Notes: generated by a model not told the origin, from the sequence alone. Shown: positions 8,662 to 21,674, counted from the stretch's first letter. The stretch is DNA of 32,000 bases from Candidatus Methylomirabilis limnetica (GCF_003044035.1 NZ_NVQC01000008.1:30001-62000); one strand, 5' to 3'. Numbers and translations are program-made.

Positions 8662-10881
8662 CTACGCCTGTAGCAATTGGGCATACTTGACCATGAGCTT
8701 CTTTTCACCGGCGCCATTGAACCTCACGACGACCTTCAAATCGTCCCCGCTGCCACTCCGTTCCCGGATCACCCCGATACCGAAATCGGGGTGCCGGATA
8801 CGGGCTCCGGGATACAGACGGTCGACAAAGGGCTCATCTTCTTGATGTTTATGTTGATGTTCATGAAAGGCAGGGGGCGGTGCGCCTCTGGATTCCCATG
8901 GATCTTGGACCTGGAGAACTTCGGGTGGGATTTCATCCAGGAACCGTGATGGCAGGTTAAACCCACTGTTTCCGTAGAGCCGTCGCTGTCGTGCCGACGC
9001 AAGGTAGAGCCGTCGCTTGGCCCTGGTCATGCCAACATAACAGAGCCGGCGTTCCTCCTCTAACTCCCGCTCGTCAGGCATGGCAAGGGCGTGCGGGAAG
9101 ATCCCTTCTTCCAGCCCGACCATAAAGACCGTTTCAAACTCGAGACCCTTGGCCGTATGGAGCGTCATGAGCGTGACCGCGCCACGGCCCTCAGTATACG
9201 CGTCGAGGTCACTAATCAGGGCGACGGAGTCGAGAAACGCCGGCAGCCCCCCTTCCGCGGTGCGCTCCACAAACTCTTGGGCGGCAGTAACGAGCTCTTT
9301 CAGGTTTTCCAGGCGGCTCTGGTCCTCCGGCGTTCCATCGCGCTGAAGCTCTTCAGCGTACCCGGAAGCGGTGATCAGCTCTGCGATCAGATCTGGAATC
9401 TGGGTGAAGGCGGATTTTGCCCTGACCTCTTCAATAAGGTGCAGCAATCCCTCCATGGCCGCCTGTTGCTTGACGTTGAACAGTCTCTCGCGTACGGCGC
9501 GTTGGCACGCTTCCCAGATCGTACTCTTGCCTTGCATGGCCAACAGTTCGAGCTTGGCGATCGTGGCCGGTCCGATTCCGCGCGCCGGCGCATTCACAAG
9601 CCGCTTGAAGCTGATGCTATCGGCGGGATTCACCACCCAGCGCAAATAGGCCAGGAGATCCTTGATCTCCTTCCGTTCATAGAAGCGGAGCCCACCCACA
9701 ATGACATACGGGATCAGGGCCTGACGCAGGGCCTCTTCCAGGACGCGAGACTGCGCGTTTGTCCGGTAGAAGATCGCGTAGTCGTCGTACCGCGTTGCGT
9801 CATTGGCCACCTGACCCTGGATCGTTCTGGCAGCGAAGAGGGCCTCATCGGTTTCATCGAGGGCCCGGTAGAGTACGATGGTGTCCCCGACCTCGTTTTC
9901 GGTCCATAAGGTCTTCCCCTTCCGATCGCTGTTGTGGGCCACCACAGCCCCCGCGCCCTGTAAGATCCGCTGCGTCGATCGATAGTTCTGTTCCAGCCGA
10001 ATCACCACGCAGCCCGGATGGTCCCGCTCGAAGTCCAGGATATTGTTCAGGTCTGCGCCGCGCCACCGATAGATCGACTGGTCGTCATCGCCTACCACAC
10101 AGAGATGCCCGTACTTGCCGGCCAGCATATGGATGAGGCGGTACTGGACGTGGTTGGTGTCCTGGTACTCGTCCACCAGGATGTAGCGCCAGAGGTCCTG
10201 ATAGGCAGCCAGCACTTCGTGGTGCCCCTCAAAGAGGCGCACCGTCGACATGAGGAGATCGTCGAAGTCGAGCGCCTGTAGCCCCTCCAACCGCTCCTGA
10301 TACATGATGTACAGCTTGGCGGTCCGCTCTTCCATATGGTCATTGGCCTGCAACGCATACTCCTCGGGGGAGAGGAGTTCGTTCTTCGCGCGGCTGATGC
10401 GGGAAAGGATTGCGCGAGGCTTGACCGCGCGATCGGATAAGCCCAACCCCCGCAGACAATCCCGCATCAGACTCATCTGATCGCCCTCGTCATAGATGAC
10501 GAAGGAACTCTTCAAGCCCAACGCCGCGCCATGTTTCCGCAGAATCCGAACGCAGGTGGAATGAAACGTTCCGACCCAGACGCTGCCGCCATCCCTTTGA
10601 CTACGTCCGTGGTAAGCCTGGTCTAACGACTCAGGGCGGTTTTGTTCCAGGAGGTCCGCCACTCGCCGCTTCATCTCGCCGGCCGCCTTGTTGGTAAACG
10701 TGACGGCCAGGATATTCCAGGGCGGAACCCCGCAGTGGCTGATCAGGTAGGCGACCCGTCTGGTGATGACCCTGGTCTTCCCTGATCCGGCCCCCGCCAG
10801 CACCAGAAGCGGCCCCTCGGTGTGCAGGACCGCCTCTTTCTGTCTGGGATTCAGGCCCTCCAAGATCGCGTGAGCTTTCAC
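8662..10881 (-). CDS. uvrD: ATP-dependent DNA helicase, UvrD/PcrA family (SF1)
   Basis: 739-aa ORF with a Walker A motif (AGAGSGKTRV), the DEYQDT motif, QNYRST, and TLHTAKGLEF/VGMTRA motifs. The GTG start at 10881 has GGAGGGA upstream. Confidence 0.93.
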   Translation of the reverse strand: MKAHAILEGLNPRQKEAVLHTEGPLLVLAGAGSGKTRVITRRVAYLISHCGVPPWNILAVTFTNKAAGEMKRRVADLLEQNRPESLDQAYHGRSQRDGGSVWVGTFHSTCVRILRKHGAALGLKSSFVIYDEGDQMSLMRDCLRGLGLSDRAVKPRAILSRISRAKNELLSPEEYALQANDHMEERTAKLYIMYQERLEGLQALDFDDLLMSTVRLFEGHHEVLAAYQDLWRYILVDEYQDTNHVQYRLIHMLAGKYGHLCVVGDDDQSIYRWRGADLNNILDFERDHPGCVVIRLEQNYRSTQRILQGAGAVVAHNSDRKGKTLWTENEVGDTIVLYRALDETDEALFAARTIQGQVANDATRYDDYAIFYRTNAQSRVLEEALRQALIPYVIVGGLRFYERKEIKDLLAYLRWVVNPADSISFKRLVNAPARGIGPATIAKLELLAMQGKSTIWEACQRAVRERLFNVKQQAAMEGLLHLIEEVRAKSAFTQIPDLIAELITASGYAEELQRDGTPEDQSRLENLKELVTAAQEFVERTAEGGLPAFLDSVALISDLDAYTEGRGAVTLMTLHTAKGLEFETVFMVGLEEGIFPHALAMPDERELEEERRLCYVGMTRAKRRLYLASARQRRLYGNSGFNLPSRFLDEIPPEVLQVQDPWESRGAPPPAFHEHQHKHQEDEPFVDRLYPGARIRHPDFGIGVIRERSGSGDDLKVVVRFNGAGEKKLMVKYAQLLQA

Positions 10882-11334
10882 TTCAGTCCGTCCCTCCGTT
10901 GGTTAGTTGAGAGTTTTAGATGATATCGTCCTTCATCATAGGCGAACCCGTCCGATGCGACAAGCGATTTTTCGGGCCTGAAGCCTCTTTGGAGATGGGC
11001 TACAGTGCCACCCCTCTTTGGTCGACAAGTACACTCTCGAGTTGAAAGGCATGGCTGCATGCGGAGGCAAGTACGGAGGATTTGACCGAGAAAAAGGATT
11101 GGAACGGAGCATGTGCCCGGCCGCAGTTACGGCTTGACATCCCCTCTGATCGGAGGGTAGCTTTTGGCTGCCCTGGAGGCGCAGACGGCGCTATGCGTGT
11201 GAATAGCCCACATTCCTGACCAGAAAACTTTAGATGCAGACGACCATGGGTTTACCTGGGCATCTCAGCGGCTGCAAAGGAACGTGTAAGTGAATCCTGA
11301 ATCTATTCACTCCGAGCAGAAGCACCGGCGCCAA

Positions 11335-11928
11335 ATGACGGTGGCTTGCATCACCTTGATCGTTTCGACCATTGCAGCACTGGCAGCACTCGGGACTGTA
11401 TCGGAGATCAGGAATCATCTTTGCTATGAGCACGACATCAACAGTGTTTGCTCGAAAGTCCAAATCAGCGAATCCGAAATGAGGGTATTTGCGTGGTATC
11501 CGGAGGCGAAGCCATTAAGCTCGTCACCTTCCACCCCTAATCCTTACCTGGACGCTTTGACTCCCAGCAGAATTGTGCACGATATTCCACCTTACGAAAA
11601 ACGCTCATACGCCAGCGGTTTCCCGAGCGGAAAACAACAGTGGCTATACTGGGAAGCGCGTCTTAAGTCTCATCTTCCTCCATTCGGCTCAATCAGGTTC
11701 GTGGTCCATTGGACGACTTACGATGCAAGTGGCAATCCTGTCGCAGGCGGTGTCTTTGAGGCCACGTGGGGTGCCGATGACCCGGTAGCCCTTATTATTG
11801 GCCCTGTCGACACAGTTCCAATTGGAGCTACCAGTCAATTTTTGCGGGGGCACTATGAGGTCGTTCTGAAGGTGTATGGCAATAAACTGGCAGAGTCAGA
11901 AGTTCACGGCGGATTCGATATTTACTGA
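11335..11928 (+). CDS. Hypothetical membrane-anchored protein (orphan)
   Basis: The start is placed at ATG 11335 (MTVACITLIVSTIAALAALG, an N-terminal TM helix). A Pro/Ser linker and a beta-rich C-terminal domain follow. No family was recognised. The region looks more AT-rich than its neighbours by eye. Confidence 0.5.
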   Translation: MTVACITLIVSTIAALAALGTVSEIRNHLCYEHDINSVCSKVQISESEMRVFAWYPEAKPLSSSPSTPNPYLDALTPSRIVHDIPPYEKRSYASGFPSGKQQWLYWEARLKSHLPPFGSIRFVVHWTTYDASGNPVAGGVFEATWGADDPVALIIGPVDTVPIGATSQFLRGHYEVVLKVYGNKLAESEVHGGFDIY

Positions 11929-12060: not shown

Positions 12061-12089
12061 TTGACATTCCATACTAGCAATCGTATAGT
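12061..12089 (+). promoter_or_regulatory. Near-consensus sigma70-type promoter (TTGACA-N17-TATAGT) upstream of the decahaem gene
   Basis: TTGACA at 12061-12066, a 17-nt spacer, and TATAGT at 12084-12089, about 65 nt upstream of ATG 12154. The same hexamers, spacing and following CC recur at 18534-18562. Confidence 0.5.
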
Positions 12090-12153
12090 CCCTCTACTGC
12101 TCGATTTCAGAGTCGCGTTTCCGTTTACGCTTGACACCTATAGGGGTTCAAAG

Positions 12154-13155
12154 ATGAAGAAGCGTGACACTGTGGCCGCTTTATTGCCCTTGCTATTTGT
12201 TGTTCTCCTTGTTGGATGGGCGTGCAGTCGATTTAGCCCGTCGCCCTCCGGAAAAGAAGCTCTCCCCGCGCAAGCCCCATCCGCCACGACCACCGTTGCC
12301 CCTCGACCTCAGTGGACCGGTCCACCGCCCGGCGCCAAGTATGTGGGGAGTGAGTCCTGCCTGACGTGCCATGAGGAGTCGAGCCAGCGCTTTCATAAGA
12401 CGATGATGGGGCGGATCATGTCCGTAAACCCGCGCACCCCCCAAGAGCAGCGGGTCTGTGAGTCGTGTCATGGCCCTGGGGGCCCTCACGTAGCTGCGGA
12501 GGGCGATGCCATTGAAACATTGATGACGTTCAAGAAGGGGGCAGAGCCGGTCGAGGCACAGAATGCCACGTGCGTGAACGGCTGCCATGAAAAGGGTGAG
12601 CACACTTCCTGGAAGGGGAGCACCCACGAGATGCGTGGCGTGGCCTGCGTGACCTGTCACAAGGTGATGGAGTCGGTGTCCGCCCGATACAACCTGGCGA
12701 AGCCGACCGCGATCGAGGTCTGCTCGCAGTGTCACCAGACCCGCCGGGCCCAGCTCCAGCGCAGTTCGCATATGCCGCTGCGCGAGGGGAAGATCAGTTG
12801 TAGCGACTGCCACAACGCGCATGGGACCGCCACCCAGGCGATGCTCAGGGAAGATTCGGTCAATGACAACTGTTACAAGTGCCATGCGGAGAAGCGGGGG
12901 CCGTTCCTCTGGGAACATGCGCCAGTCACAGAGAGCTGTACGAACTGCCACGAGCCGCACGGCTCCACAAATCCGAGACTCCTGAAGGTCAGGGTTCCCA
13001 GGCTCTGTCAGCAGTGTCATGTTGAGACCCGACACCCAACGAGCCCATACAATCCGACGACCGGAGCAAGGCAGGTCACCAACAGGGGCTGCAACAACTG
13101 CCACCAGAAGATCCATGGGTCAAACCATCCATCAGGATTCGCCTTCACGAACTGA
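12154..13155 (+). CDS. Periplasmic decahaem c-type cytochrome, DmsE/MtrA/PioA/MtoA family
   Basis: 333 aa from ATG 12154 (aGGGG upstream) with a signal or lipoprotein-like N-terminus. It has nine CxxCH motifs plus one CxxxCH (CVNGCH) in the third position. Family-typical blocks are present: KYVGSESCLTCHE, CESCHGPGGPHV, PFLWEHAPVTESCTNCHEPHGS and CNNCHQKIHGSNHPSG. Confidence 0.9.
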   Translation: MKKRDTVAALLPLLFVVLLVGWACSRFSPSPSGKEALPAQAPSATTTVAPRPQWTGPPPGAKYVGSESCLTCHEESSQRFHKTMMGRIMSVNPRTPQEQRVCESCHGPGGPHVAAEGDAIETLMTFKKGAEPVEAQNATCVNGCHEKGEHTSWKGSTHEMRGVACVTCHKVMESVSARYNLAKPTAIEVCSQCHQTRRAQLQRSSHMPLREGKISCSDCHNAHGTATQAMLREDSVNDNCYKCHAEKRGPFLWEHAPVTESCTNCHEPHGSTNPRLLKVRVPRLCQQCHVETRHPTSPYNPTTGARQVTNRGCNNCHQKIHGSNHPSGFAFTN

Positions 13156-13188: not shown

Positions 13189-15603
13189 ATGGGAGCGTTA
13201 ATCAGGATGAGATGGGTCAGCAAAGCACTACTGCCCGCCATAGCCCTGCTGCTGACGGTCGTCGCATCGGGTTACGCAGAACAGGCCCCGCCGGAGGAGG
13301 CTCTCCCGTCTTGGGCCAAATGGCTAAACGGTCGACTGCCATTCAACTTTGAGCTGACCGAGTTGGATATCGAGGGCGGTTATCGCGACATCGATGGCAG
13401 CCGGAGTTCGGCCAAGTTTCAGGAGTACCGCGTCCTTGAAGAGAGTCCCTTTATGGACCACCTTCGACTCTCCATGGAGACCAAAGATAAAAAGCACTAC
13501 ATCGACTTTACTACGCTAGACAGCTTCAAGCAGGACCAAAGCTACCTGTTTAGAGCAGGGCAGTACGGTGGCTATGAACTGGAGGTCTTCTGGGATCAGA
13601 TCCCCCATCTGCTGAGCACCACAGGACGAACACTCTTTACCACCACGCATGAGGATAGTACGGCGAGTCTAACCCTGCCGCCTGGTGTCGCATCGACGGT
13701 CCAGGCCGCTACCCCAGCCACAAGGGGCTCCGTGATGGCCGGCTTTCTGGTCAATGCCGCACCGACGGATCTCAGTTTCCTGACCACCAAAGCGGGATTC
13801 AAGATGAAGTACAACCTGACAGATTCACTGGATGTCGGTGTCCGCTATACCTTCACGCAGAAGGATGGGACGATTCCCTTTGGTACCGGTTTCGGTGGCC
13901 CGGGGAGCCTTATCGAGCTTCCGGCCCCCCTCTTTAACCGCACCCACCAGGTTGAGGCCAAGACCCAATATGCTCGGCCGGGTTGGAACGTTAGTCTTGG
14001 CGGCGCCGCATCGATCTTCGACCAGGGCATCGACAACATCACGTTCGACAACCCGCTCTCGGCAACGGACAGCCCGACCGTTGCCTCTCGCGGCCGGACC
14101 ACCATGGACCCGAACAACCAGGCGTATAACCTGTTTCTCTCTGGCGGCGTCTCCCTGCCGCTTCAGACCAGAGTCACGGGTAAGGTCTCCTACGGGTGGC
14201 GGCTCCAGACTCAGGATTTCGTCCCGCATACCATCAACCCCGCTTTGGCAGCCAATCCCCTATTGGCGCTCCCAAAACGCGATCTGGATGGAGATGTCCA
14301 AACAACCCTTGTGACGATCAACGGGACGAGTCGCCCGATTACCACTGTCCCGCTGACGCTATCCGGTGGCTACCGCTTTTATGACTTCAATAACCGATCA
14401 TCTGAGATCGAGTTCACTGCGCATACGGTCCGGGATACGTCGCTCACGGCCGAGACGCGGGCCAACGCGCCCTTCTCCTACACGAAGCAAAATGGTCGCC
14501 TGGACGCGGGTTATTCCCTCCTCAAGGACCTTCATCTCAATATGGGTTACGAGTGGGAGCGGTGGGACCGCGATCCGAAATACCGCGAGGTGCAGACCAG
14601 TGATGAGCACTTCTTAAAAACCAGCCTCGACTTTACGCCGATAGACTGGCTGCTCCTTAGAGGCGCCTATCGCCGGAGTTGGCGCAACATCGACAAGTAC
14701 GTGCCCCAGGCCCATCATGCGCATATCGTCACCGACATCGAGGGGGAGACAGATCCAGAGGTCCTGGAGCTCCAGGGTCAATCGACTCTGCTTCGGAAGT
14801 TTGACGAAGCCGACCGGACACGGGACAGGGTCGAGATTTTAGCGTCGATCACCCCGATCGAGACACTCAACTTTACGGCGACCTATGGCCTTATGCGGGA
14901 TGATTTTGACAAGTCCCCGCTCGGGCTGCAGGAATCGCGGGGATGGAGCCTGGGTGGCGATTTGGCCTATAGCCCTCGCCCGTGGCTTTCGTTCTTCGTG
15001 AACTACATGAGGGAGGAGTTTAAGTATGATCAGCTCTCTCGCTCCAGGCCGGTCGTCGGCAACGTATCTACGGCGACCGCTCTGGCGCCGGGGTGTGCGT
15101 TTACCTCCCCTTCCGCCGCAACCAGTAACGCGGTCTGTGACTTTACCGATTTTAATTGGAGGAGCATTAACAGAGATAGGGTAGACACCTATGGGGTAGG
15201 CGCCGACGTCAGCCTGATTCCCAACCGTCTCAACCTGCGGTTGAGCTACTCCTTTTCTGACGCCGACACGATCATCGATTCGTCCAACCCTGTCGCTCCG
15301 GAGCTCCACCCACCCACGACTGGGGCCACCCAGCGGGCTACGGCGACCGCCGTCCGGTATCCCCTGGCGAACACGAACCTGCACACCCTGATCGCCGCGC
15401 TTCGCTATAATATGACTAAGAACTGGAGCCTTAATGGCGAGTATCGATTTGAGCAGTTTCGGGAGACCGATTGGGCGACCGACGCGATTGGGACGTCTGG
15501 CCTAACGACCTTACCCCCGACGGCCGATACATATTTAGGCGCTCGGTTCCTCCAGAATTACAACGCCCATATTGCTGGTTTTACGCTTCGCTATAAGTTC
15601 TGA
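13189..15603 (+). CDS. Outer-membrane beta-barrel, MtrB/PioB (decahaem-associated porin) family
   Basis: 804-aa ORF starting 33 nt after the decahaem gene (GGGGAGGTG SD). It has a signal peptide (ALLPAIALLLTVVASGYA-EQ), alternating-polarity beta-strand character throughout, and a C-terminal FTLRYKF-stop typical of OMPs. Its size matches PioB/MtoB, and the gene order is MtrA then MtrB. Confidence 0.8.
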   Translation: MGALIRMRWVSKALLPAIALLLTVVASGYAEQAPPEEALPSWAKWLNGRLPFNFELTELDIEGGYRDIDGSRSSAKFQEYRVLEESPFMDHLRLSMETKDKKHYIDFTTLDSFKQDQSYLFRAGQYGGYELEVFWDQIPHLLSTTGRTLFTTTHEDSTASLTLPPGVASTVQAATPATRGSVMAGFLVNAAPTDLSFLTTKAGFKMKYNLTDSLDVGVRYTFTQKDGTIPFGTGFGGPGSLIELPAPLFNRTHQVEAKTQYARPGWNVSLGGAASIFDQGIDNITFDNPLSATDSPTVASRGRTTMDPNNQAYNLFLSGGVSLPLQTRVTGKVSYGWRLQTQDFVPHTINPALAANPLLALPKRDLDGDVQTTLVTINGTSRPITTVPLTLSGGYRFYDFNNRSSEIEFTAHTVRDTSLTAETRANAPFSYTKQNGRLDAGYSLLKDLHLNMGYEWERWDRDPKYREVQTSDEHFLKTSLDFTPIDWLLLRGAYRRSWRNIDKYVPQAHHAHIVTDIEGETDPEVLELQGQSTLLRKFDEADRTRDRVEILASITPIETLNFTATYGLMRDDFDKSPLGLQESRGWSLGGDLAYSPRPWLSFFVNYMREEFKYDQLSRSRPVVGNVSTATALAPGCAFTSPSAATSNAVCDFTDFNWRSINRDRVDTYGVGADVSLIPNRLNLRLSYSFSDADTIIDSSNPVAPELHPPTTGATQRATATAVRYPLANTNLHTLIAALRYNMTKNWSLNGEYRFEQFRETDWATDAIGTSGLTTLPPTADTYLGARFLQNYNAHIAGFTLRYKF

Positions 15604-15632
15604 CCTCTATATCGCGCGCAAAAGGAGTAGTG

Positions 15633-15671
15633 AAGCCAGCCTGTCGGGCGTCGTCTGACGAGCTGGCTTTT
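15633..15671 (+). terminator. Possible weak hairpin/attenuator between the porin and Rieske genes
   Basis: AAGCCAGC at 15633-15640 pairs with GCTGGCTT at 15662-15669 and is followed by TT. The loop is large (21 nt) and the T-tract is short, so this is not a strong intrinsic terminator. Confidence 0.25.
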
Positions 15672-15694
15672 GACGTTCAAGTCTGAAGGAGGGA

Positions 15695-16150
15695 ATGGTT
15701 GTGCCACAGCAAGATGAACAGGTCGATTATGGGCGGCGAACGGTGAATTGGCTTCTCGGGAGTTCCATCGGCGTGCTCTTCGTATCCATCCTTTACCCGG
15801 TTGTAAAATACCTGATTCCCCCAAAACTTGCCGAGCCGACTACGTTTAGCGTGACCCTTCCCTGGAAGCTTGCGGAGTTGAAGGCGAACTCGGGGCGGAT
15901 ATTTCGATTCAGGAGTCGACCTGGCCTCTTGGTGAAGACGTCGGCTGGTGAGTTAAAGGCCTTCTCAGCGGTCTGTAGCCACCTGGAATGCACGGTGCAA
16001 TACCGGGAAGAGCGGCAGGACATCTGGTGCGCCTGCCACAATGGCGTGTTCGACCTGAATGGAAAAAATATCAGCGGCCCGCCGCCTCGGCCCCTGGAGT
16101 CTTTGAAGTTGAACGTTCGTGGCGATCAGATCGTCGTTATGAAAGGGTAG
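15695..16150 (+). CDS. Rieske [2Fe-2S] subunit of a cytochrome bc/b6f-type complex
   Basis: 151 aa with an N-terminal TM helix. Rieske boxes are CSHLEC (box I) and CACHNGVF (box II). The start is either ATG 15695 or, with better spacing to GGAGG, GTG 15701. Confidence 0.9.
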
Positions 16151-16154
16151 CCAT

Positions 16155-17243
16155 GTGATGGGGGATCGGATCACGGCTTGGCTTGAAGAGCGAATCGACC
16201 TTTCGGCGCTCAAGCACCTCATCCAGAAAAAGGTCATCCCTGTCCATCGCCATACCGTCTGGTACTATGTCGGCGGGATGACGCTCTTTCTCTTCGGGAT
16301 CCAAGTGGCGACCGGGATCCTGCTGACCCTCTACTACCGGCCCAGCTCCGAGGAGGCATACGAGAGCGTTCAATTTATCGTGACCGAAGTCCAATTTGGC
16401 TGGCTCGTTCGGTCGATCCATAGCTGGTCAGCCAATCTGATGGTGTTGACAATGATGATCCACATGTTCAGCGTCTACCTAACTCAAGCCTACCGAAAAC
16501 CACGAGAGCTGACATGGGTGACCGGAATATTGCTTTTCGGCATTGTGCTTTTCTTCGGGTTCAGCGGGTATCTGCTACCATGGAATGTCCTCTCGTACTT
16601 CGCCACTAAAGTCGGGACCGAGGTCACTGGGCAGCTTCCGATTGTGGGTCATTTTCTGGTGCGGCTCCTCAGGGCTGGTGACGAGGTCTCGGGTGCGACG
16701 CTTTCCCGCTTTTTCGGCATCCACATTGCAATCCTGCCGGCGCTCACCACGCTGATACTCGCCCTCCACCTCCTCTTGGTCCAGAAGCAGGGGATGAGTG
16801 TTCCTGCAACCGTAGAGCGTGCCCAAGCGGGACAGCCGCTCAGGACCATGCCGTTTGTCCCCAATTTTCTGCTGCGAGACCTCTTCGGCTGGTTCGCCGC
16901 CCTTGGGCTCTTGGCCGCCCTGGCCGCTATGTACCCATGGGAGCTGGGACAAAAGGCCGATCCTTTCGCCCCCGCACCCGCTGGGATCCGACCGGAATGG
17001 TACTTTGTCTTCATGTTTCAGAGTTTGAAGTATATCCCGGCCAAGGTCGGTCCATTTGACGGTGAGGTCTTGGGGGTCCTGGGCTATAGTCTGGGCGGGC
17101 TGTTCCTTTTACTGGTCCCATTTCTGGACAAAAGGACAGCCCGGGGCGAGCCAAGCCCGCTCTTCCGATGGATCGGGATCGGTATCATCGCGTACATCGT
17201 GATACTCACCGCGCTTGGATATTTCGCGCCTGCCTTCAAATGA
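16155..17243 (+). CDS. Cytochrome b (fused b6-like N-terminal part + subunit IV-like C-terminal part)
   Basis: 362 aa starting 5 nt after the Rieske stop. The bis-His haem ligand pairs fall in helices B and D ([19 protein letters not shown] and [22 protein letters not shown]), and a PEWYF motif is present in the C-terminal part. Confidence 0.92.
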
Positions 17244-17250
17244 GGAAGCC

Positions 17251-18519
17251 GTGAGGATCGCGCTGCGCATCGCGTGCTTCGGCCTTATCCTGATCGCGGC
17301 CGGCCTGATCCGCGTCCCCTTCGCGGAGGCGCAGGATGCCTGTGTTGACTGCCATAAGGCATCAAAAGAGGAGCGCCTCAGCCGTCCGGCCTTGAAGATT
17401 AAAGACGATTACCACCTGGCGCGTGGACTGGGCTGCCAGAACTGCCACGGCGGTGACCAGGCCGCAGTCGGCAACAAGGCGCAGAGCCACAGTTCGGCCA
17501 AAGGGTTCCTGGGCAAACCGAATCGGCGCGCGATCCCTGAATCCTGTGGGAAGTGCCACAGCGATCCAGTCTATATGCGGAAGTTTAATCCTTCCATTCG
17601 GACAGACCAGGTAAAGGAATACTATACGAGTCTCCATGGCAAAAAGCTTCGCGAAGGAGATCTGAAGGTCGCCGTCTGTACCAGTTGCCATGACGTCCAT
17701 GCCATCCGTGCCAGCAAGGACCAGGCGGCATGGACATATCCTGTCAAGGTCGCTGAGACTTGCGCTCGCTGCCACGGTGACGCTGAATACATGAAAGGCT
17801 ACAAGATCCCCACCGATCAGCTTGAGAAGTACAAGCAGAGTATTCATTACGAGATGTTGACCAAGAAGGGGGAGCTCGCCTCTCCGACGTGCAGCGGCTG
17901 CCACGGTAGTCACGGCGCCGCCCCTCCCGGCATCGATTCCGTGGCGAATGTCTGCAGCCACTGTCATGCAGCGACGGCCGAGCTCTTCGACAGGAGCGCG
18001 CATAAGGCGGCATTCGCCGAGCTGGGGATGCCGGCGTGCGTGACATGTCATAGTAATCACGATGTCGTGAAACCGTCGGACGCGATGCTGACTGGTGGAG
18101 AAGATACCGCTTGTGCCACTTGCCATGAAGCGAACTCTGCGCCCCTAAAGAAGGCTGCTGAGTTGCGAACTATGATCGAGGGCCTTTCGAGTCAAATCGA
18201 TCAGGCGACGGCAATCCTCACCAAGGCTGAGCACGCAGGAATGGAGATCGGCCATCCTCGATTCGAGCTCATTGCGGCGAAAGACTCCTTGATCAAGGCC
18301 AGAGCAGAAACCCATTTGCTCAAGGTGGAAAAGATCAAGGCTATCACCGACCCAGGGTTCATCGTCGCTCAGAAGAGTCTCACGAGCGGCCAAGACCTCC
18401 TGACCGAGCTGCAGTTCCGCCGCAAGGGGCTGGCGGTCTCCATGCTGGTCATTGGCGCGGTTCTGATCGGCCTCTTCTTAAAGATCCGGGAAGTCGATAG
18501 ACGGAGAGGACCTCGCTGA
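17251..18519 (+). CDS. Membrane-anchored nonahaem c-type cytochrome (occupies the cytochrome c1/f position of the bc operon)
   Basis: The start is placed at GTG 17251 (GAGGAAG SD), 8 nt after the cytochrome b stop. It has a signal-like N-terminus, nine CxxCH motifs, a C-terminal helical region and a single TM anchor (LAVSMLVIGAVLIGLFLKI). Confidence 0.85.
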   Translation: MRIALRIACFGLILIAAGLIRVPFAEAQDACVDCHKASKEERLSRPALKIKDDYHLARGLGCQNCHGGDQAAVGNKAQSHSSAKGFLGKPNRRAIPESCGKCHSDPVYMRKFNPSIRTDQVKEYYTSLHGKKLREGDLKVAVCTSCHDVHAIRASKDQAAWTYPVKVAETCARCHGDAEYMKGYKIPTDQLEKYKQSIHYEMLTKKGELASPTCSGCHGSHGAAPPGIDSVANVCSHCHAATAELFDRSAHKAAFAELGMPACVTCHSNHDVVKPSDAMLTGGEDTACATCHEANSAPLKKAAELRTMIEGLSSQIDQATAILTKAEHAGMEIGHPRFELIAAKDSLIKARAETHLLKVEKIKAITDPGFIVAQKSLTSGQDLLTELQFRRKGLAVSMLVIGAVLIGLFLKIREVDRRRGPR

Positions 18520-18533
18520 CAATACCGCCGGCA

Positions 18534-18562
18534 TTGACATGAATAGGTAGAGCGGCTATAGT
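18534..18562 (+). promoter_or_regulatory. Second near-consensus sigma70-type promoter (TTGACA-N17-TATAGT) inside the cytochrome locus
   Basis: TTGACA at 18534-18539, a 17-nt spacer, and TATAGT at 18557-18562. It lies 15 nt after the nonahaem gene stop and about 180 nt upstream of ATG 18744. Confidence 0.5.
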
Positions 18563-18666
18563 CCGCATGACAGCCCGATGGCATGAGCTAGGAGCGTATG
18601 GGACCGTGCCCCGAAGATGCGAGCGAAAGCGGAGTAGCGAGTAATCACCTCTGCCCGCTTTCGATC

Positions 18667-18743: not shown

Positions 18744-19157
18744 ATGAGATCAATGATCGGAGGGAGCGCGAGGCTTGCTCTCGCGTGCCTCCTGCTTGTG
18801 AGCTTCACGCCATCGCGTAGTGTCGCCCAGCCAAAACTGAAGATTCCACCCCCCTTCGCCTTCGAGCAGAAGACCAAGGATGAGGCGGGGAACATGAGCT
18901 TTGGGAAGGTAACGTTCGATCACAACGTGCATATTGAAAAAGGCCAAAAGTGCCTGAGTTGCCACGGCAAGGGTAAACCCTTCAAAAATAAGAATGGAAC
19001 CTCTCCGGACATCACCATGAAGGCCTTCAATGAAGGAAAGGCGTGTGGTACATGCCACAACGGGAAGGTTGCATTCTCCACAAAGGAGATAGGCAATTGC
19101 CTGAAGTGCCATAAGGTCAGTACGGTTCCGCAGCCGAAGAGCACCGAGACGCAGTAA
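18744..19157 (+). CDS. Periplasmic trihaem cytochrome c, c7/c3 (PpcA-like) family
   Basis: 137 aa with an AAGGAAG SD and a signal peptide (ARLALACLLLVSFTPSRSVAQ). It has three CxxCH motifs (CLSCH, CGTCH, CLKCH) and the VTFDHNVH motif typical of c7/c3 domains. Confidence 0.85.
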   Translation: MRSMIGGSARLALACLLLVSFTPSRSVAQPKLKIPPPFAFEQKTKDEAGNMSFGKVTFDHNVHIEKGQKCLSCHGKGKPFKNKNGTSPDITMKAFNEGKACGTCHNGKVAFSTKEIGNCLKCHKVSTVPQPKSTETQ

Positions 19158-19259
19158 CTGGATTGTGGCAGGTGGCCGACTTGAGAGTGCGCCTCTTCAC
19201 GGTCCCTGCTATCGCGCGCCCTGTTTGGGAACGTGGGTAGCGATACCATTTCACGCTTG

Positions 19260-21443
19260 ATGATGAGGAGCGCATGCTACGGAAAGGCGGCCGGGGGCCT
19301 TTTCCTTGTTTGGCTTTTTCTGCCCATAGCTCCGAATGTCTTCGCGGTCGTCTCGGAGTTGCCTGCCACTTCTCAGGAGTGCTTGGCCTGCCACAACGAT
19401 CCCGACTTGAAGAAGGAGATCGGGGGAGGGCGATACGCTTCGCTGCTCGTAGAGCCGGCCGACCTGATTCAATCCGCGCACAAAGAGCTTGCCTGCGCCG
19501 AGTGCCATGGTGGCATCCCAGAAGGGTCTCACGCCGAAACGCCCCAGCCAGTACGTTGCAGCGCCTGCCATCTCAAACCCCATGAGAATGTTCCGGATAG
19601 CGCTCATGCCAATCTGGGGGGTATAGGCCCCAGCGCCAATTGCATCGCCTGTCATGGTAGTCACCGAATCCAGAAGATAGCCGCCGATGGCAACGTCAGC
19701 CTCTGCGCTTCGTGCCATGGCCGCCAGGCGAAACATATGGCCGCCGGCATTCATGCCGGTAGCCGCGGGGAGAAAACCAGGCATCTGCCAACCTGCGCCA
19801 CGTGCCACAACACGGCCCACGCCGTCAAATCTCACCGCGATCCTGTGTCGCCCACCCATCGCTCGCAGATTCACGAAACCTGTGCCCGCTGCCATGCCGA
19901 TCCGAAGGTGATCGCCGAAGAACAGATCACCAGGCCGCGGGCCGTTGCGCTCTTCGTGCAAAGCATCCACGGCCAAGCCATCCTACAGAAAGGCAATCTC
20001 ACTGCCGCAACCTGCACCGATTGCCATGGCGCTCACGAGATCCGACGAGCTGCCGATCCCGCCTCTGGCGTCTTCAAGCAGAACGTCGCCGTCACCTGCA
20101 AGCAGTGCCACGACGACGTAGCCAGTCAGTTTCAGGACAGCGTGCACGGGAGGGCCGTCTCACACGGGGTTTTCGCGGCGCCGACATGCACTGATTGCCA
20201 CGGGGAGCATGGGATCACTGCCACCCGCGCCCCGGGATCGCGAGTGGCGCCGCTGACCGTCTCCAAGACCTGCGCTGCCTGCCACGAGGCGGTACGGGTG
20301 GTCGAGGAGTTTGGCCTCGCGCCGCGGCGAGCCGGGACGTTCTTTGAGAGCTTTCACGGCCTGGCTGCGAGAGGTGGGTCGCCCGTGGTGGCCAACTGTG
20401 CAAGCTGCCATGGGACCCACAATATTCAGCCCTCCTCCGATCCTCGCTCCACCGTCAACCCGATGAACCTCTCGCGAACCTGTGGGCAGTGCCACCGAGG
20501 CGCCGGCATACAATTGGCCAGTGCCAGAATTCACGTGGCACCAGGGTTCGGCGAGCACCCATGGGTAACCCTGGTCCGACAGATCTACCTTGTGATTATC
20601 TTTGTCACCATTGGCGGGATGAGCCTGCACAACGGGCTTGACTTCCTGGTACATCTGCGAGAGCGTTGGCGAACAGAGGGGCAGCAGGAAGACGAACCCC
20701 GCGTGCCTCCCGAGGTGGCGCGCCGTCTCTTTGAGCGATTGACACTCAATGAGCGGATTCAGCACGTTACGCTGTTTGCGACCTTCACGATCCTGGTGAT
20801 TACCGGTTTTGCCCTGAAGTTTCCTGATGCGTGGTGGGCACGGCCGCTGGTCTGGATCGAAAGCGGATATGCCGTCCGAGCCTGGCTACATCGAATCGCC
20901 GGCGTGCTCATGACGCTGGCGGCAGGGTATCATCTGGCGTATCTCTTCGGCACGCAGCGTGGCCGGGCTCAGTTCCGATTGATGCAACCCTGCCGACGGG
21001 ATGTAGGCGAGGCATGGGAAATGGTGACCTTTAATCTGGGTCTGCGGCCACACCGGCCCCGTTTCCACCGCTTTACGTACGTAGAGAAGCTGGAGTACTG
21101 GGCGGTCATGTGGGGAACTGTCGTTATGGCCGGCACCGGGTTTATCATGTGTCTACAAACTATTGTGCTGAAGCGCTGGCCCCTTTTGGTTATTGACCTG
21201 GCAAGCGTCGTCCATTATTACGAGGCATGGCTTGCAACGCTTGCTGTCCTGGTCTGGCACTTCTACAGCGTCATCTTCCGGCCTGATATCTACCCGATGA
21301 GCCAGGTCTGGCTGACTGGGAAGATTACGGGAGAACAAATGGCCAAGGATCACGCTGCCGAATTGGAGGAGACGCTTGCGGCAGAAACCGTGCTAAGCTC
21401 ATTGCCGGGAGATAAGAAGGCGGAACCGCGGGTAAGTATCTGA
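19260..21443 (+). CDS. Fusion protein: 13-haem c-type cytochrome domain + C-terminal membrane b-type cytochrome domain (FdnI/HydC-like; CbcL-like architecture)
   Basis: The ORF opens at GTG 19233, and ATG-ATG at 19260/19263 is the likelier start. After the N-terminal TM/signal segment, 13 CxxCH motifs occur in the first roughly 430 aa. The last roughly 280 aa carry 4-5 predicted TM helices with conserved His residues (IQHVTLF, WLHRIAG, VHYYEAW, VWHFYSV). Confidence 0.85.
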   Translation: MMRSACYGKAAGGLFLVWLFLPIAPNVFAVVSELPATSQECLACHNDPDLKKEIGGGRYASLLVEPADLIQSAHKELACAECHGGIPEGSHAETPQPVRCSACHLKPHENVPDSAHANLGGIGPSANCIACHGSHRIQKIAADGNVSLCASCHGRQAKHMAAGIHAGSRGEKTRHLPTCATCHNTAHAVKSHRDPVSPTHRSQIHETCARCHADPKVIAEEQITRPRAVALFVQSIHGQAILQKGNLTAATCTDCHGAHEIRRAADPASGVFKQNVAVTCKQCHDDVASQFQDSVHGRAVSHGVFAAPTCTDCHGEHGITATRAPGSRVAPLTVSKTCAACHEAVRVVEEFGLAPRRAGTFFESFHGLAARGGSPVVANCASCHGTHNIQPSSDPRSTVNPMNLSRTCGQCHRGAGIQLASARIHVAPGFGEHPWVTLVRQIYLVIIFVTIGGMSLHNGLDFLVHLRERWRTEGQQEDEPRVPPEVARRLFERLTLNERIQHVTLFATFTILVITGFALKFPDAWWARPLVWIESGYAVRAWLHRIAGVLMTLAAGYHLAYLFGTQRGRAQFRLMQPCRRDVGEAWEMVTFNLGLRPHRPRFHRFTYVEKLEYWAVMWGTVVMAGTGFIMCLQTIVLKRWPLLVIDLASVVHYYEAWLATLAVLVWHFYSVIFRPDIYPMSQVWLTGKITGEQMAKDHAAELEETLAAETVLSSLPGDKKAEPRVSI

Positions 21444-21521
21444 GTAAAAGACTCGAATCAGCAAAAGAGGAGTATTGTTGTAAAGCACACCTCGTGAGGT
21501 GCTGTCCAACCCTGGTGCACG

Positions 21522-21609
21522 AAAACCCCCTCAATCCCTCTTTGCGAAAGGGGGAGGTAAGGAAACGTATACGTATCCCCCTTTTTTGAAAGGGGGGTCA
21601 GGGGGGTTT
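21522..21609. repeat. Composite GC-rich palindromic repeats (two units of the PPFxKGGxGGF family) downstream of the cytochrome locus
   Basis: Inner palindromes are ccctctttgcgaaaggggg (21536-21554) and tcccccttttttgaaagggggg (21576-21597). They are enclosed by aaaaccccc (21522-21530) and ggggggttt (21601-21609). One frame reads PPFLKGGSGGF. The structure may also act as a transcription stop. Confidence 0.75.
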
Positions 21610-21674
21610 GTCTGAAGCTGACGGCTGATCGTTGATTGCTGAATACTATTTTCGAAGGAAACTCAGAGGAGATA

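Follow-up and report, generated by a model that had tools for sequence, protein, structure and literature searches.

A Rieske/cytochrome b gene set with a membrane-anchored nonahaem cytochrome c in Candidatus Methylomirabilis limnetica: a candidate complex III analogue beside an MtrAB/PioAB-type conduit

Introduction

Complexes that combine a Rieske/cytochrome b core with multihaem cytochromes c are already recognized in Geobacter, anammox bacteria, and Methanoperedens. The Geobacter sulfurreducens cluster extHIJKLMNOPQS (GSU2940-2930) genetically ties a bc-type core to an outer-membrane conduit (PMC5877670, PMC2825233), and Geobacter reviews list Cbc5/CbcEDCBA among the inner-membrane quinol:cytochrome c oxidoreductases. 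In the anammox bacterium Kuenenia and in Methanoperedens, the core is joined by extra multihaem c subunits that replace cytochrome c1/f or stand beside it, and in the Methanoperedens model these subunits pass electrons to periplasmic or pseudoperiplasmic enzymes (PMC4683180, PMC8790184). M. lanthanidiphila, M. tolerans, and M. limnetica are each listed with at least two non-canonical bc1 complexes (PMC8906906 Table 1). The cytochrome b DAMO_0768 of Candidatus M. oxyfera has been assigned to cytochrome b subfamily G (PMC5600118), and M. oxyfera cytochrome b has been grouped with the Chlorobi/NC10/Acidobacteria PEWY clade (PMC4122944).

Here, we analyzed a window of 32,000 nucleotides from Candidatus Methylomirabilis limnetica (NZ_NVQC01000008.1, positions 30001-62000), by which we mean the whole stretch of DNA. 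This methane-oxidizing NC10 bacterium is closely related to M. oxyfera. The DAMO_0768 cluster of M. oxyfera (FP565575.1, ~689-701 kb), whose genes have been in the published genome since 2010, is orthologous to and syntenic with that in the window. The flanking UvrD and GatC genes are the same, and both clusters contain the genes for the MtrA-like, MtrB/PioB, Rieske, cytochrome b, nonahaem, c7, CbcL-like, and TPR proteins. Protein identity between these two different species is 90% for the Rieske subunit, 86% for cytochrome b, and 77% for the nonahaem cytochrome. Only M. oxyfera has a gene for a 732-aa, 16-haem protein of the NapC/NirT family, located between the CbcL-like and TPR genes and absent from the window.

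Results

The initial annotation described positions 15695-18519 as the genes for a Rieske protein, a fused cytochrome b, and a cytochrome with nine CxxCH motifs, and all of these parts hold:

15695-16150, + strand: Rieske [2Fe-2S] subunit with an N-terminal membrane anchor (PF00355 and PF25471 matches; boxes CSHLEC and CACHNGVF)
16155 or 16158-17243, + strand: long cytochrome b (fused b6 and subunit IV) with seven membrane helices (PF00033, PF13631, PF00032, TIGR01156, hydropathy)
17251-18519, + strand: membrane-anchored nonahaem cytochrome c with a signal peptide, a nine-haem domain, three long helices, and a C-terminal membrane helix (CxxCH count, AlphaFold2 secondary structure, membrane segments, synteny)

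The Rieske gene starts at an ATG with GGAGGGA a few bases 5' of it and encodes 151 aa. Its product matches PF00355 at 40.5 bits (Pfam cut-off, 20.3) and the PetC membrane anchor model at 30.6 bits, below the Pfam cut-off of 37.1. The CxHxxC and CxCH boxes are complete, recur in all linked homologues, and, together with the membrane anchor, identify the protein as a Rieske member of the bc1/b6f superfamily.

The cytochrome b gene begins 4 or 7 nt 3' of the Rieske stop codon, at GTG 16155 or ATG 16158, and encodes 361-362 aa; the ATG, which is the start in public gene calls for the same contig, is the more probable of the two. Because PF00033 (residues 34-213, 186 bits), PF00032 (residues 268-356), and the NCBIfam subunit IV model TIGR01156 (residues 247-327) all match this protein, b6 and subunit IV are fused in one chain, for which the best NCBIfam match is cytochrome b6 (248.5 bits, below the cut-off of 325). 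Both haem-ligand histidine pairs are present, as helix B contains H-x13-H and helix D contains H-x14-H. The Qo site carries PEWY, which recurs in 77 of 79 linked homologues, such that the bL/bH ligands and PEWY-type Qo site typical of the bc1/b6f superfamily are all in place. At the CxGG site, the window has YVGG and most homologues have Y/F-x-GG, with no cysteine for haem ci. The protein therefore has neither the split b6/subunit IV arrangement nor the CxGG cysteine by which b6f and Bacillus-type bc complexes are recognized.

The third gene starts at GTG 17251, 7 nt 3' of the cytochrome b stop codon, which is overlapped by GAGGAAG, and encodes 422 aa. We thus see the spacers of 4-7 nt that had been noted for the trio, with Shine-Dalgarno sequences inside the preceding gene ends. 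The nine CxxCH motifs of the product lie at residues 31, 62, 99, 143, 171, 214, 235, 263, and 288, which sets it apart from the monohaem cytochrome c1 of canonical bc1 complexes. The signal-like N-terminus proposed earlier corresponds to a hydrophobic segment at residues 7-25 followed by AEA/QD (hydropathy), and the proposed single C-terminal transmembrane helix to residues 394-412, followed by REVDRRRGPR and in agreement with the AlphaFold2 secondary structure. Together, these segments directly indicate a Sec-exported protein that stands where cytochrome c1/f would be expected and is anchored in the inner membrane through a single C-terminal helix.

Beyond the CxxCH motifs, the family alignment contains seven invariant histidines and two nearly invariant methionines, giving nine candidate distal ligands. 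Since nine CxxCH motifs are paired with nine such candidates, the role of the nonahaem cytochrome is expected to be electron transfer rather than catalysis. A catalytic role resembling that of octahaem or pentahaem reductases is unlikely, given that all nine motifs are CxxCH and that the nine distal-ligand candidates are conserved. The Pfam matches are exclusively multihaem models (PF09699, PF14522, and PF14537), with no cytochrome c1 or f model among them. The AlphaFold2 model, which is haem-free and of moderate confidence (pLDDT 75, pTM 0.55), retrieved nothing significant from the PDB with Foldseek (best E 0.26, octahaem nitrite reductases, TM 0.18), and a sequence profile search of the PDB returned no close solved relative and weak local multihaem matches to OcwA (6i5b), MtrA (6r2q), and NrfB. 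Within the window, the haem domain is related by paralogy to the multihaem part of the CbcL-like protein, whose gene lies 700 bp further downstream (29% identity, E = 1e-24). The family has no curated name and is covered by no curated family, and we found no description of the nonahaem subunit itself in the open literature.

The nonahaem family is large and conserved over its full length, with 486 clusters at 50% identity reaching E <= 1e-30 and relatives in at least 576 species genomes, which belong to NC10, Rokubacteria, Acidobacteriota, Gemmatimonadota, and further groups. Acidobacteriota and Gemmatimonadota make up most of the carriers of the trio, and many of these have no porin-cytochrome gene nearby. 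Among the 80 best loci, the nonahaem gene directly adjoins a Rieske and cytochrome b pair in 76, which represent several phyla and two gene orders (nonahaem last in 58, first in 18); three of the four exceptions are cut by a contig end, and one is without cytochrome b. Of 82 orthologous open reading frames, 81 retain all nine CxxCH motifs. Conservation of both the motifs and the trio is far beyond chance.

We also found natural fusions. In P0130, a subunit IV-like part is joined to the nonahaem cytochrome, and in P0203, cytochrome b is; neither fusion has a signal peptide, and both look genuine. The absence of the signal peptide fits because a seven-helix cytochrome b is expected to have a periplasmic C-terminus. 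We did not count the apparent cytochrome b fusion P0194 as proof of a complex, since the nonahaem's own start, lysine run, and signal peptide are retained and the fusion is probably a read-through artefact, and the apparent fusion P0212 is ambiguous. Given the adjacency in the 76 loci and the fusions to subunit IV or cytochrome b, the nonahaem cytochrome is very probably the third subunit of the Rieske/cytochrome b complex. The earlier proposal of a translationally coupled unit in which this protein would replace c1/f is well supported by comparative genomics, and the refuting outcome named with it, homologues that never adjoin Rieske/cytochrome b genes, was not what the loci showed.

The Rieske/cytochrome b complexes of Chlorobi (green sulfur bacteria) are not known to have a bound c1-type subunit. 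Because the cytochrome b falls in the Chlorobi/NC10/Acidobacteria clade (PMC4122944) and the nonahaem gene may be either the first or the last of the three, we considered whether the nonahaem cytochrome could be a separately anchored periplasmic carrier, that is, a short membrane-tethered wire merely co-expressed with a two-subunit core. This is highly improbable in view of the nearly invariant adjacency across phyla, the signal peptide-free fusions, and a spacing that indicates translational coupling, all of which favor a bound third subunit.

Upstream and downstream of the trio, the window contains further cytochrome genes and a porin gene:

12151-13155, + strand: DmsE/MtrA-family decahaem cytochrome c with nine CxxCH and one CxxxCH (TIGR03508, 266.9 bits; cut-off, 192.2)
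13189-15603, + strand: MtrB/PioB-family outer-membrane beta-barrel porin (PF11854, 394.6 bits; TIGR03509, 321.8 bits; cut-off, 240)
18744-19157, + strand: periplasmic trihaem c7-type cytochrome with three CxxCH, a candidate shuttle (PF14522, 59 bits; TIGR04257, 63 bits; cut-off, 40)
19233-21443, + strand: CbcL-like fusion of a 13-CxxCH multihaem domain and a b561/FdnI-type membrane cytochrome b (PF01292, 42.5 bits; cut-off, 30.1); public gene calls start it at 19263

The trio is thus placed directly after mtrAB-like genes, as the initial annotation had stated, and these lie 33 nt apart in the arrangement of an MtrAB/PioAB/MtoAB conduit. No gene for an extracellular MtrC/OmcA-type decahaem lipoprotein, as in MtrCAB, was found among the open reading frames at 11-22 kb, where the MtrC/MtrF-domain model produced only a sub-threshold match inside the MtrA-like protein.

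Three elements in the intergenic regions may bear on how these genes are transcribed:

12061-12089, + strand: promoter-like site P1, TTGACA-17-TATAGT, 5' of the mtrA-like gene (11/12 consensus positions)
15634-15672, + strand: conserved GC-rich hairpin with TTTT at its 3' side, in the mtrB-Rieske spacer
18534-18562, + strand: promoter-like site P2, TTGACA-17-TATAGT, just 3' of the nonahaem stop codon and ahead of the c7 gene (11/12 consensus positions)

Both hexamers of P1 are kept in M. oxyfera, with divergence of the spacer between them, and P2, which lies ahead of the c7 and CbcL-like genes, is likewise kept in M. oxyfera, as well as in locus L005. No promoter-like site was detected between mtrB and the Rieske gene or elsewhere from mtrA through the trio. 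The 91-nt spacer between mtrB and the Rieske gene (15604-15694) folds at -34.9 kcal/mol (z = -2.0); the hairpin stem and T-run are kept in M. oxyfera and L005, while the rest of the spacer diverges. It is possible that the hairpin is a partial terminator or an RNA stabilizer, and hairpin and T-run may partly uncouple the expression of mtrB and the Rieske gene. Judged from the promoter-like sites, the trio appears to be co-transcribed with the mtrA-like and mtrB-like genes in the Methylomirabilis clade.

Outside this clade, the surroundings of the trio vary. Of the 37 acidobacterial-type loci whose flanks are complete, 18 have a DmsE-type decahaem gene a few kb 5' of the trio; CbcL-like genes, too, occur repeatedly in its vicinity in Acidobacteriota. 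The 876-aa protein encoded at the MtrB position of acidobacterial loci, considered as a distant MtrB homologue, had no match by BLASTP, Pfam, or NCBIfam. The trio occurs without Mtr genes in L003, where it adjoins a NIR_SIR gene, and in L085, where it comes after an aminotransferase gene; none of the seven full-flank loci with the nonahaem gene first has an MtrA-like or CbcL-like gene. Genes for monohaem or dihaem cytochromes c border the trio in L039 and come after it in L005. Because the trio is elsewhere often without Mtr genes, its predicted coupling to an outer-membrane conduit is specific to the Methylomirabilis clade.

These observations bear on whether the complex is dedicated to the MtrAB-like conduit, as was first suggested, or whether the trio encodes an ordinary complex III, from which small cytochromes c would carry electrons to the periplasmic nitrite reductase NirS and to terminal oxidases, and follows mtrAB only by a clade-specific accident. 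The latter would account for the many genomes in which the trio stands alone or beside unrelated genes, for the small cytochrome c genes in L039 and L005, and for the hairpin and T-run ahead of the Rieske gene. On the other hand, the conserved promoter-like site lies before mtrA with none seen before the Rieske gene, and a DmsE-type decahaem upstream of the trio in nearly half of the loci from a different phylum is hard to call an accident. Moreover, with at least two non-canonical bc1 complexes reported for other Methylomirabilis species (PMC8906906 Table 1), there is room for specialization. We therefore regard an ordinary complex III with an accidental placement as unlikely, and the suggestion of dedicated coupling stands in part: the promoter-like sites and the acidobacterial decahaem genes speak for it, while the conserved hairpin and the frequent occurrence of the trio without Mtr genes speak against it.

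Discussion

Our findings suggest, with a probability of roughly 0.6, that positions 15695-18519 encode a non-canonical Rieske/cytochrome b complex, analogous to respiratory complex III, that connects the quinone pool with a haem network in the periplasm and outer membrane. In such a complex, (mena)quinol would be oxidized at the Qo site; one electron would reach the Qi site through the b haems, in the manner of a Q cycle, and the other would be carried by the mobile Rieske head to that haem of the nonahaem subunit which lies nearest the membrane. From there, the nine-haem chain would deliver electrons to periplasmic multihaem partners, namely the c7 trihaem encoded downstream and, in the Methylomirabilis clade, also the MtrA-like decahaem housed in the MtrB/PioB porin. 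As the initial annotation suggests, the nine-haem arm may reach toward the porin cytochrome. Bis-His-ligated multihaem cytochromes tend to have low potentials, with which electron transfer from a Rieske centre could be uphill. The two conserved methionines are candidate ligands for a haem at or above about +100 mV, to which forward transfer would be feasible. In most other lineages that carry the trio, the complex is probably simply the cell's quinol:cytochrome c oxidoreductase.

The direction of electron flow could also be reversed. An extracellular donor (for example, Fe(II), reduced humics, or a cathode) would then feed a PioAB/MtoAB-type module, from which the nonahaem subunit would collect the electrons. 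The Rieske/cytochrome b complex, driven backward by the proton motive force as has been proposed for the bc1 complexes of iron oxidizers, would reduce the quinone pool and so supply reductant for the Calvin cycle or for nitrite/NO reduction. No MtrC-type extracellular cytochrome is encoded beside the mtrAB-like genes, and a two-gene mtrAB arrangement without MtrC is typical of PioAB/MtoAB. PioA/PioB homologues from Rokubacteria and Acidobacteria have been put forward as markers of new iron oxidizers (PMC10654088), and backward bc complexes have been documented or proposed for Acidithiobacillus and Geobacter metallireducens (PMC4122944). Against this, no sequence feature indicates direction, the forward role of a complex III is simpler for the Acidobacteriota and Gemmatimonadota, many of which lack a nearby porin-cytochrome gene, and the operon also carries a CbcL-like gene, Geobacter CbcL being a quinol oxidase for electron export (PMC13591261). 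We therefore favor quinol oxidation with electron export through the nonahaem subunit and consider the reversed flow rather unlikely.

If the nonahaem cytochrome is a true subunit, a very large set of soil and sediment bacteria, among them the Acidobacteriota, Gemmatimonadota, Rokubacteria, and NC10, the last of which include methane oxidizers relevant to greenhouse gases, would oxidize quinol with a complex III that has its own nine-haem wire. In Methylomirabilis, a promoter-like site common to the trio and an MtrAB/PioAB-type conduit raises the possibility of electron exchange between these nitrite-dependent methanotrophs and minerals, humics, or Fe(II). More tentatively, and as a rather unlikely extension, the Rieske/cytochrome b-nonahaem complex may be the energy-conserving inner-membrane entry or exit of a conserved trans-envelope pathway common to NC10 and many Acidobacteriota, the other parts of which would be a DmsE/MtrA-type decahaem, an outer-membrane barrel, a small periplasmic cytochrome, and a CbcL-like protein. 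Were this true, the quinone pool would be coupled to extracellular acceptors or donors by a Q-cycle machine in place of a CymA-, ImcH-, or CbcL-type quinol dehydrogenase, which does not pump, and a nitrite-dependent methanotroph would have a so far unrecognized metal or humics respiration or Fe(II) oxidation.

Compared with known systems, the predicted complex resembles bc1, b6f, and Bacillus QcrABC in its Rieske protein, four-histidine cytochrome b, PEWY motif, and c1-like topology of the third subunit (periplasmic haem domain with a C-terminal anchor), and differs from them in having nine haems, not one or two. Its cytochrome b shares with bc1 the fusion into one chain and with b6 the 14 residues between the helix D histidines; no cysteine is present to bind haem ci. 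In Bacillus QcrC, subunit IV is fused to a cytochrome c, an arrangement that is mirrored by the subunit IV-nonahaem fusion P0130. The ext cluster of G. sulfurreducens, which we take to be Cbc5, has a short cytochrome b, a separate membrane protein, ExtQ, and a porin outside the MtrB/PioB family; the window proteins fall outside the Ext family, with 15.1 bits for the nonahaem cytochrome on the ExtN model (cut-off, 200) and 218.4 bits for cytochrome b on the ExtP model (cut-off, 290). Anammox complexes contain HAO-like octahaems and NAD(P)-binding subunits. The subunit set of Methanoperedens likewise differs, with pentahaems, and neither type has a C-terminally anchored nonahaem of the window's family or an MtrAB neighbourhood. 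Geobacter CbcA is also an inner-membrane multihaem cytochrome anchored at its C-terminal end (PMC13591261), but the haem domains of Geobacter CbcL and CbcA are joined to or partnered with FdnI/HydC-type or other dihaem b subunits, not with Rieske/cytochrome b. Finally, the CbcL-like protein of the window, which is likened to CbcL by architecture alone, has 13 CxxCH motifs compared to the nine haems of Geobacter CbcL (PMC13591261).

Gene trio and its source

The initial annotation had described a closely packed gene trio for a Rieske protein, a fused cytochrome b and a membrane-anchored cytochrome with nine CxxCH motifs, and this description proved correct in every detail that could be checked by ORF calling, Pfam, NCBIfam, motif counting and hydropathy. 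From the ORF listing, with the junctions read directly, the genes are as follows.

15695 to 16150, + strand, Rieske gene
GTG 16155 or ATG 16158 to 17243, + strand, cytochrome b gene
GTG 17251 to 18519, + strand, nonahaem gene (422 aa)

The 3' ends of the preceding genes contain purine-rich Shine-Dalgarno-like sequences, and the spacers measure 4-7 nt. The trio lies on a metagenome-derived, high-coverage contig of 106.6 kb. The best named matches of the nonahaem protein are all from NC10/Methylomirabilota, with 77% identity to the protein of Ca. Methylomirabilis oxyfera, whose published genome (FP565575.1) holds a cluster with the same gene order and flanking genes as the window: MtrA-like decahaem, MtrB/PioB porin, Rieske, cytochrome b, nonahaem, c7 trihaem, CbcL-like and TPR.

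Rieske and cytochrome b subunits

By Pfam and NCBIfam, the Rieske gene product consists of a Rieske domain and a PetC-type anchor, and its Rieske boxes read CSHLEC and CACHNGVF. Mutational work on high-potential Rieske proteins has shown that a serine and a tyrosine raise the potential of the cluster, and the window protein has neither residue. PEWY is the Qo motif of the Chlorobi/NC10/Acidobacteria clade in which the cytochrome b of M. oxyfera was placed, and Rieske proteins of low to middle potential were predicted for this clade (PMC4122944). Together, the absent residues and this prediction suggest that the window Rieske would be a centre of low potential, like those that operate with menaquinol.

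In cytochrome b, a b6-like domain at the N-terminus and a subunit IV-like domain at the C-terminus are joined in a single protein (Pfam, NCBIfam), with H-x13-H in helix B and H-x14-H in helix D, which is b6-type spacing, and a PEWY motif. In b6f and Bacillus complexes, a cysteine at the CxGG site binds haem ci; here the site reads YVGG, and in 79 linked homologues taken from other genomes the cysteine is likewise absent. In this set, PEWY occurs in 77 of 79 and the histidine spacings of 13 and 14 in at least 70, and the accompanying Rieske boxes read CTHLxC and CxCHNGx[Y/F]. Hydropathy gives seven membrane helices when the less hydrophobic helix B is counted, so the C-terminus of cytochrome b should face the periplasm. 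The M. oxyfera protein, DAMO_0768, has served as a representative of cytochrome b subfamily G (PMC5600118).

A nonahaem cytochrome as the probable third subunit

The nonahaem protein has exactly nine CxxCH motifs, a signal-peptide-like N-terminus and, ahead of a basic tail, one C-terminal membrane helix, the same topology as cytochrome c1. Full-length alignments extend to relatives with as little as 30% identity, and in them all nine CxxCH motifs and seven further histidines (55, 129, 150, 199, 221, 270 and 355) are invariant, while methionines 109 and 181 are nearly so. Since these seven histidines and two methionines provide nine candidate distal ligands for nine haems, the alignment argues for a role in electron transfer rather than catalysis. 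In an AlphaFold2 model (pLDDT 75), the haem domain is predicted to span roughly residues 30-295; three long helices come after it, and the final one enters the membrane. The protein lies outside any curated family, and sequence and structure comparison with the PDB returned no significantly similar solved structure. Its haem domain and the multihaem domain of the downstream CbcL-like protein are paralogues (29% identity, E = 1e-24) and are both made of a repeated two-haem module, so that the cluster carries one module on two different quinone-interacting membrane anchors. The CbcL-like protein (19233-21443) has 13 CxxCH motifs, compared to the nine haems of Geobacter CbcL (PMC13591261).

Relatives of the nonahaem protein form 486 clusters at 50% identity with E <= 1e-30, most members being about 420 aa long, and occur in at least 576 genomes when one genome per species is scanned. 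Carriers include NC10, Rokubacteria, many Acidobacteriota (Chloracidobacterium among them), Gemmatimonadota, Binatia, KSB1 and others. Over the best 80 loci of these genomes, Rieske and cytochrome b genes directly adjoin the nonahaem gene in 76, in the order Rieske-cytochrome b-nonahaem in 58 and nonahaem-Rieske-cytochrome b in 18. Three of the remaining four loci end at a contig edge, and one, from Rokubacteria, has the Rieske gene with a histidine kinase gene in place of cytochrome b. The refuting case named in the initial annotation, homologues that are never linked to Rieske and cytochrome b genes, is thus clearly contradicted.

The homologues include predicted fusions, among them P0130 of a subunit IV-like part with the nonahaem protein, and P0203 of cytochrome b with it. 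These two look genuine, since the last membrane helix is joined straight to the haem domain without a signal peptide, as the periplasmic C-terminus of a seven-helix cytochrome b allows. Taken together, genomic linkage and fusions indicate that the nonahaem protein is very probably the third subunit of the Rieske/cytochrome b complex.

Another fusion candidate, P0194, is probably a read-through artefact, since it retains a lysine run, an internal start and a signal peptide. Separately, in the homologues P0122 (575 aa) and P0144 (734 aa) the C-terminal membrane helix is followed by one or two TerB (tellurite-resistance) domains. These domains would sit on the cytoplasmic side, and such a fusion is unexpected for a c1-like subunit.

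MtrAB-like neighbours and predicted transcription units

The two genes upstream of the trio exceed the curated cut-offs of the DmsE/MtrA decahaem and MtrB/PioB porin families, and ORF and Pfam searches at 11-22 kb found no gene for an MtrC-type extracellular cytochrome near them. The MtrA/DmsE-family protein (12151-13155) has nine CxxCH motifs and one CxxxCH (CVNGCH, residue 141) where the tenth standard motif is expected. A 212-aa ORF upstream of its gene (11290-11928), syntenic with a 212-aa M. oxyfera gene (L002:4103-4741), has no Pfam or NCBIfam match.

A consensus scan of 11.5 kb yielded only two promoter-like sites at 11/12 match, listed here with a hairpin in the 91-nt spacer between the mtrB and Rieske genes.

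12061-12089, promoter-like site just upstream of the mtrA-like gene, sigma-70-type TTGACA-17-TATAGT, 11/12
15634-15672, GC-rich hairpin, then TTTT
18534-18562, promoter-like site just after the nonahaem stop codon, sigma-70-type TTGACA-17-TATAGT, 11/12

The hexamers of both sites are kept in M. oxyfera, where the surrounding sequence diverges, and the 18534-18562 site is also kept in L005, the locus of a relative at 70% identity. These conserved sites predict two transcription units, one from mtrA through mtrB, Rieske and cytochrome b to nonahaem and the other from c7 to CbcL-like. In three species (the window, M. oxyfera L002 and L005) the hairpin stem and T-run are conserved within an otherwise divergent spacer, and the element may be a partial terminator, an attenuator of read-through or a stabiliser of upstream RNA inside the operon.

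L005 also has a dihaem cytochrome c gene (9142-9915; CIQCH, CLKCH) between its nonahaem and c7 genes, and a short 3'-end remnant of it remains at about 18590-18637 of the window (WDRAPKMRAKAE-stop, compared to WDHAPKMRAKAEQLG in L005). By this comparison, the gene has apparently been deleted in the window and M. oxyfera. Between its CbcL-like and TPR genes, M. oxyfera encodes a protein of 732 aa whose N-terminus is of the NapC/NirT type and which carries 16 CxxCH motifs (L002:14196-16394); tblastn (E <= 1e-3) found no homologue anywhere in the window, where the corresponding spacer is 21443-21636. Also 3' of the CbcL-like gene, at about 21510-21610, are the G/C-rich palindromes CCCTCTTTGCGAAAGGGGG and CCCCCTTTTTTGAAAGGGGGG, which probably represent terminators or a repeated element.

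Among 37 nonahaem-last loci with full 8-kb flanks, mostly from Acidobacteriota, a DmsE-like decahaem gene is near in 18 and a CbcL-like gene in 12; neither occurs in the seven nonahaem-first loci with full flanks. A Ca. Acidiferrales locus (L039) has the overall layout of NC10, in the order DmsE-family decahaem, 876-aa protein, monohaem c, trio, monohaem c, NrfH/NapC-like multihaem and CbcL-like. The 876-aa protein (L039:3360-5990), which in such acidobacterial clusters takes the porin position between the decahaem and the trio, has no Pfam or NCBIfam match and no detectable similarity to the window MtrB, and may be an undescribed outer-membrane partner of a decahaem. A second type of NC10 trio, at about 50% identity, has retained the c7 and CbcL-like genes with no MtrAB immediately upstream, and in a 5.6-Mb genome (L003) the trio lies beside a sulfite/nitrite reductase-type gene, with no Mtr genes.

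The initial annotation had proposed a dedicated coupling of the complex to the MtrAB-like proteins. The promoter-like site before mtrA and the DmsE-like genes in 18 of 37 loci support coupling, but the intervening hairpin and the trios without Mtr genes speak against its being dedicated. Since neighbourhoods are mixed outside the Methylomirabilis clade, coupling to an outer-membrane conduit recurs and is probably functional in some lineages, yet it does not define the complex.

Proposed mechanism and direction of electron flow

In the best-supported reading, the trio complex would be a Q-cycle-type quinol oxidase feeding the nonahaem subunit, with electrons passing from the Rieske head through it to periplasmic multihaem partners; in Methylomirabilis, these would be the c7 protein and the MtrA-like protein seated in the porin. 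No sequence feature fixes the direction of flow. A pair of MtrAB genes with no MtrC is reminiscent of the PioAB/MtoAB modules found in iron oxidisers, and in Rokubacteria and Acidobacteria homologues of PioAB have been put forward as iron oxidation markers (PMC10654088). By analogy with Geobacter (PMC13591261), the CbcL-like protein encoded nearby suggests that quinol is oxidised to export electrons. Aerobic soil phyla widely carry the trio on its own, which favours an ordinary forward complex III role. The widespread trio complex may be the inner-membrane terminus, with energy conservation, of a route for extracellular electron transfer, a proposal that is testable.

Comparison with known complexes

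Rieske/cytochrome b cores with multihaem cytochromes are already an established kind. Anammox bacteria have three Rieske/cytochrome b complexes by complexome profiling (PMC8790184), and in Methanoperedens two pentahaems are encoded together with Rieske/cytochrome b in one gene cluster (PMC4683180). The Geobacter extHIJKLMNOPQS cluster also adjoins a porin-like gene (PMC5877670, PMC2825233), and the window proteins fall outside the Geobacter Ext families (NCBIfam). For Methylomirabilis itself, a genome that appeared in 2010 already contains the orthologous cluster, and the literature mentions non-canonical bc1 complexes: a table citing a complexome study lists "min. 2 non-canonical" complexes for M. 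lanthanidiphila, M. tolerans and M. limnetica (PMC8906906).
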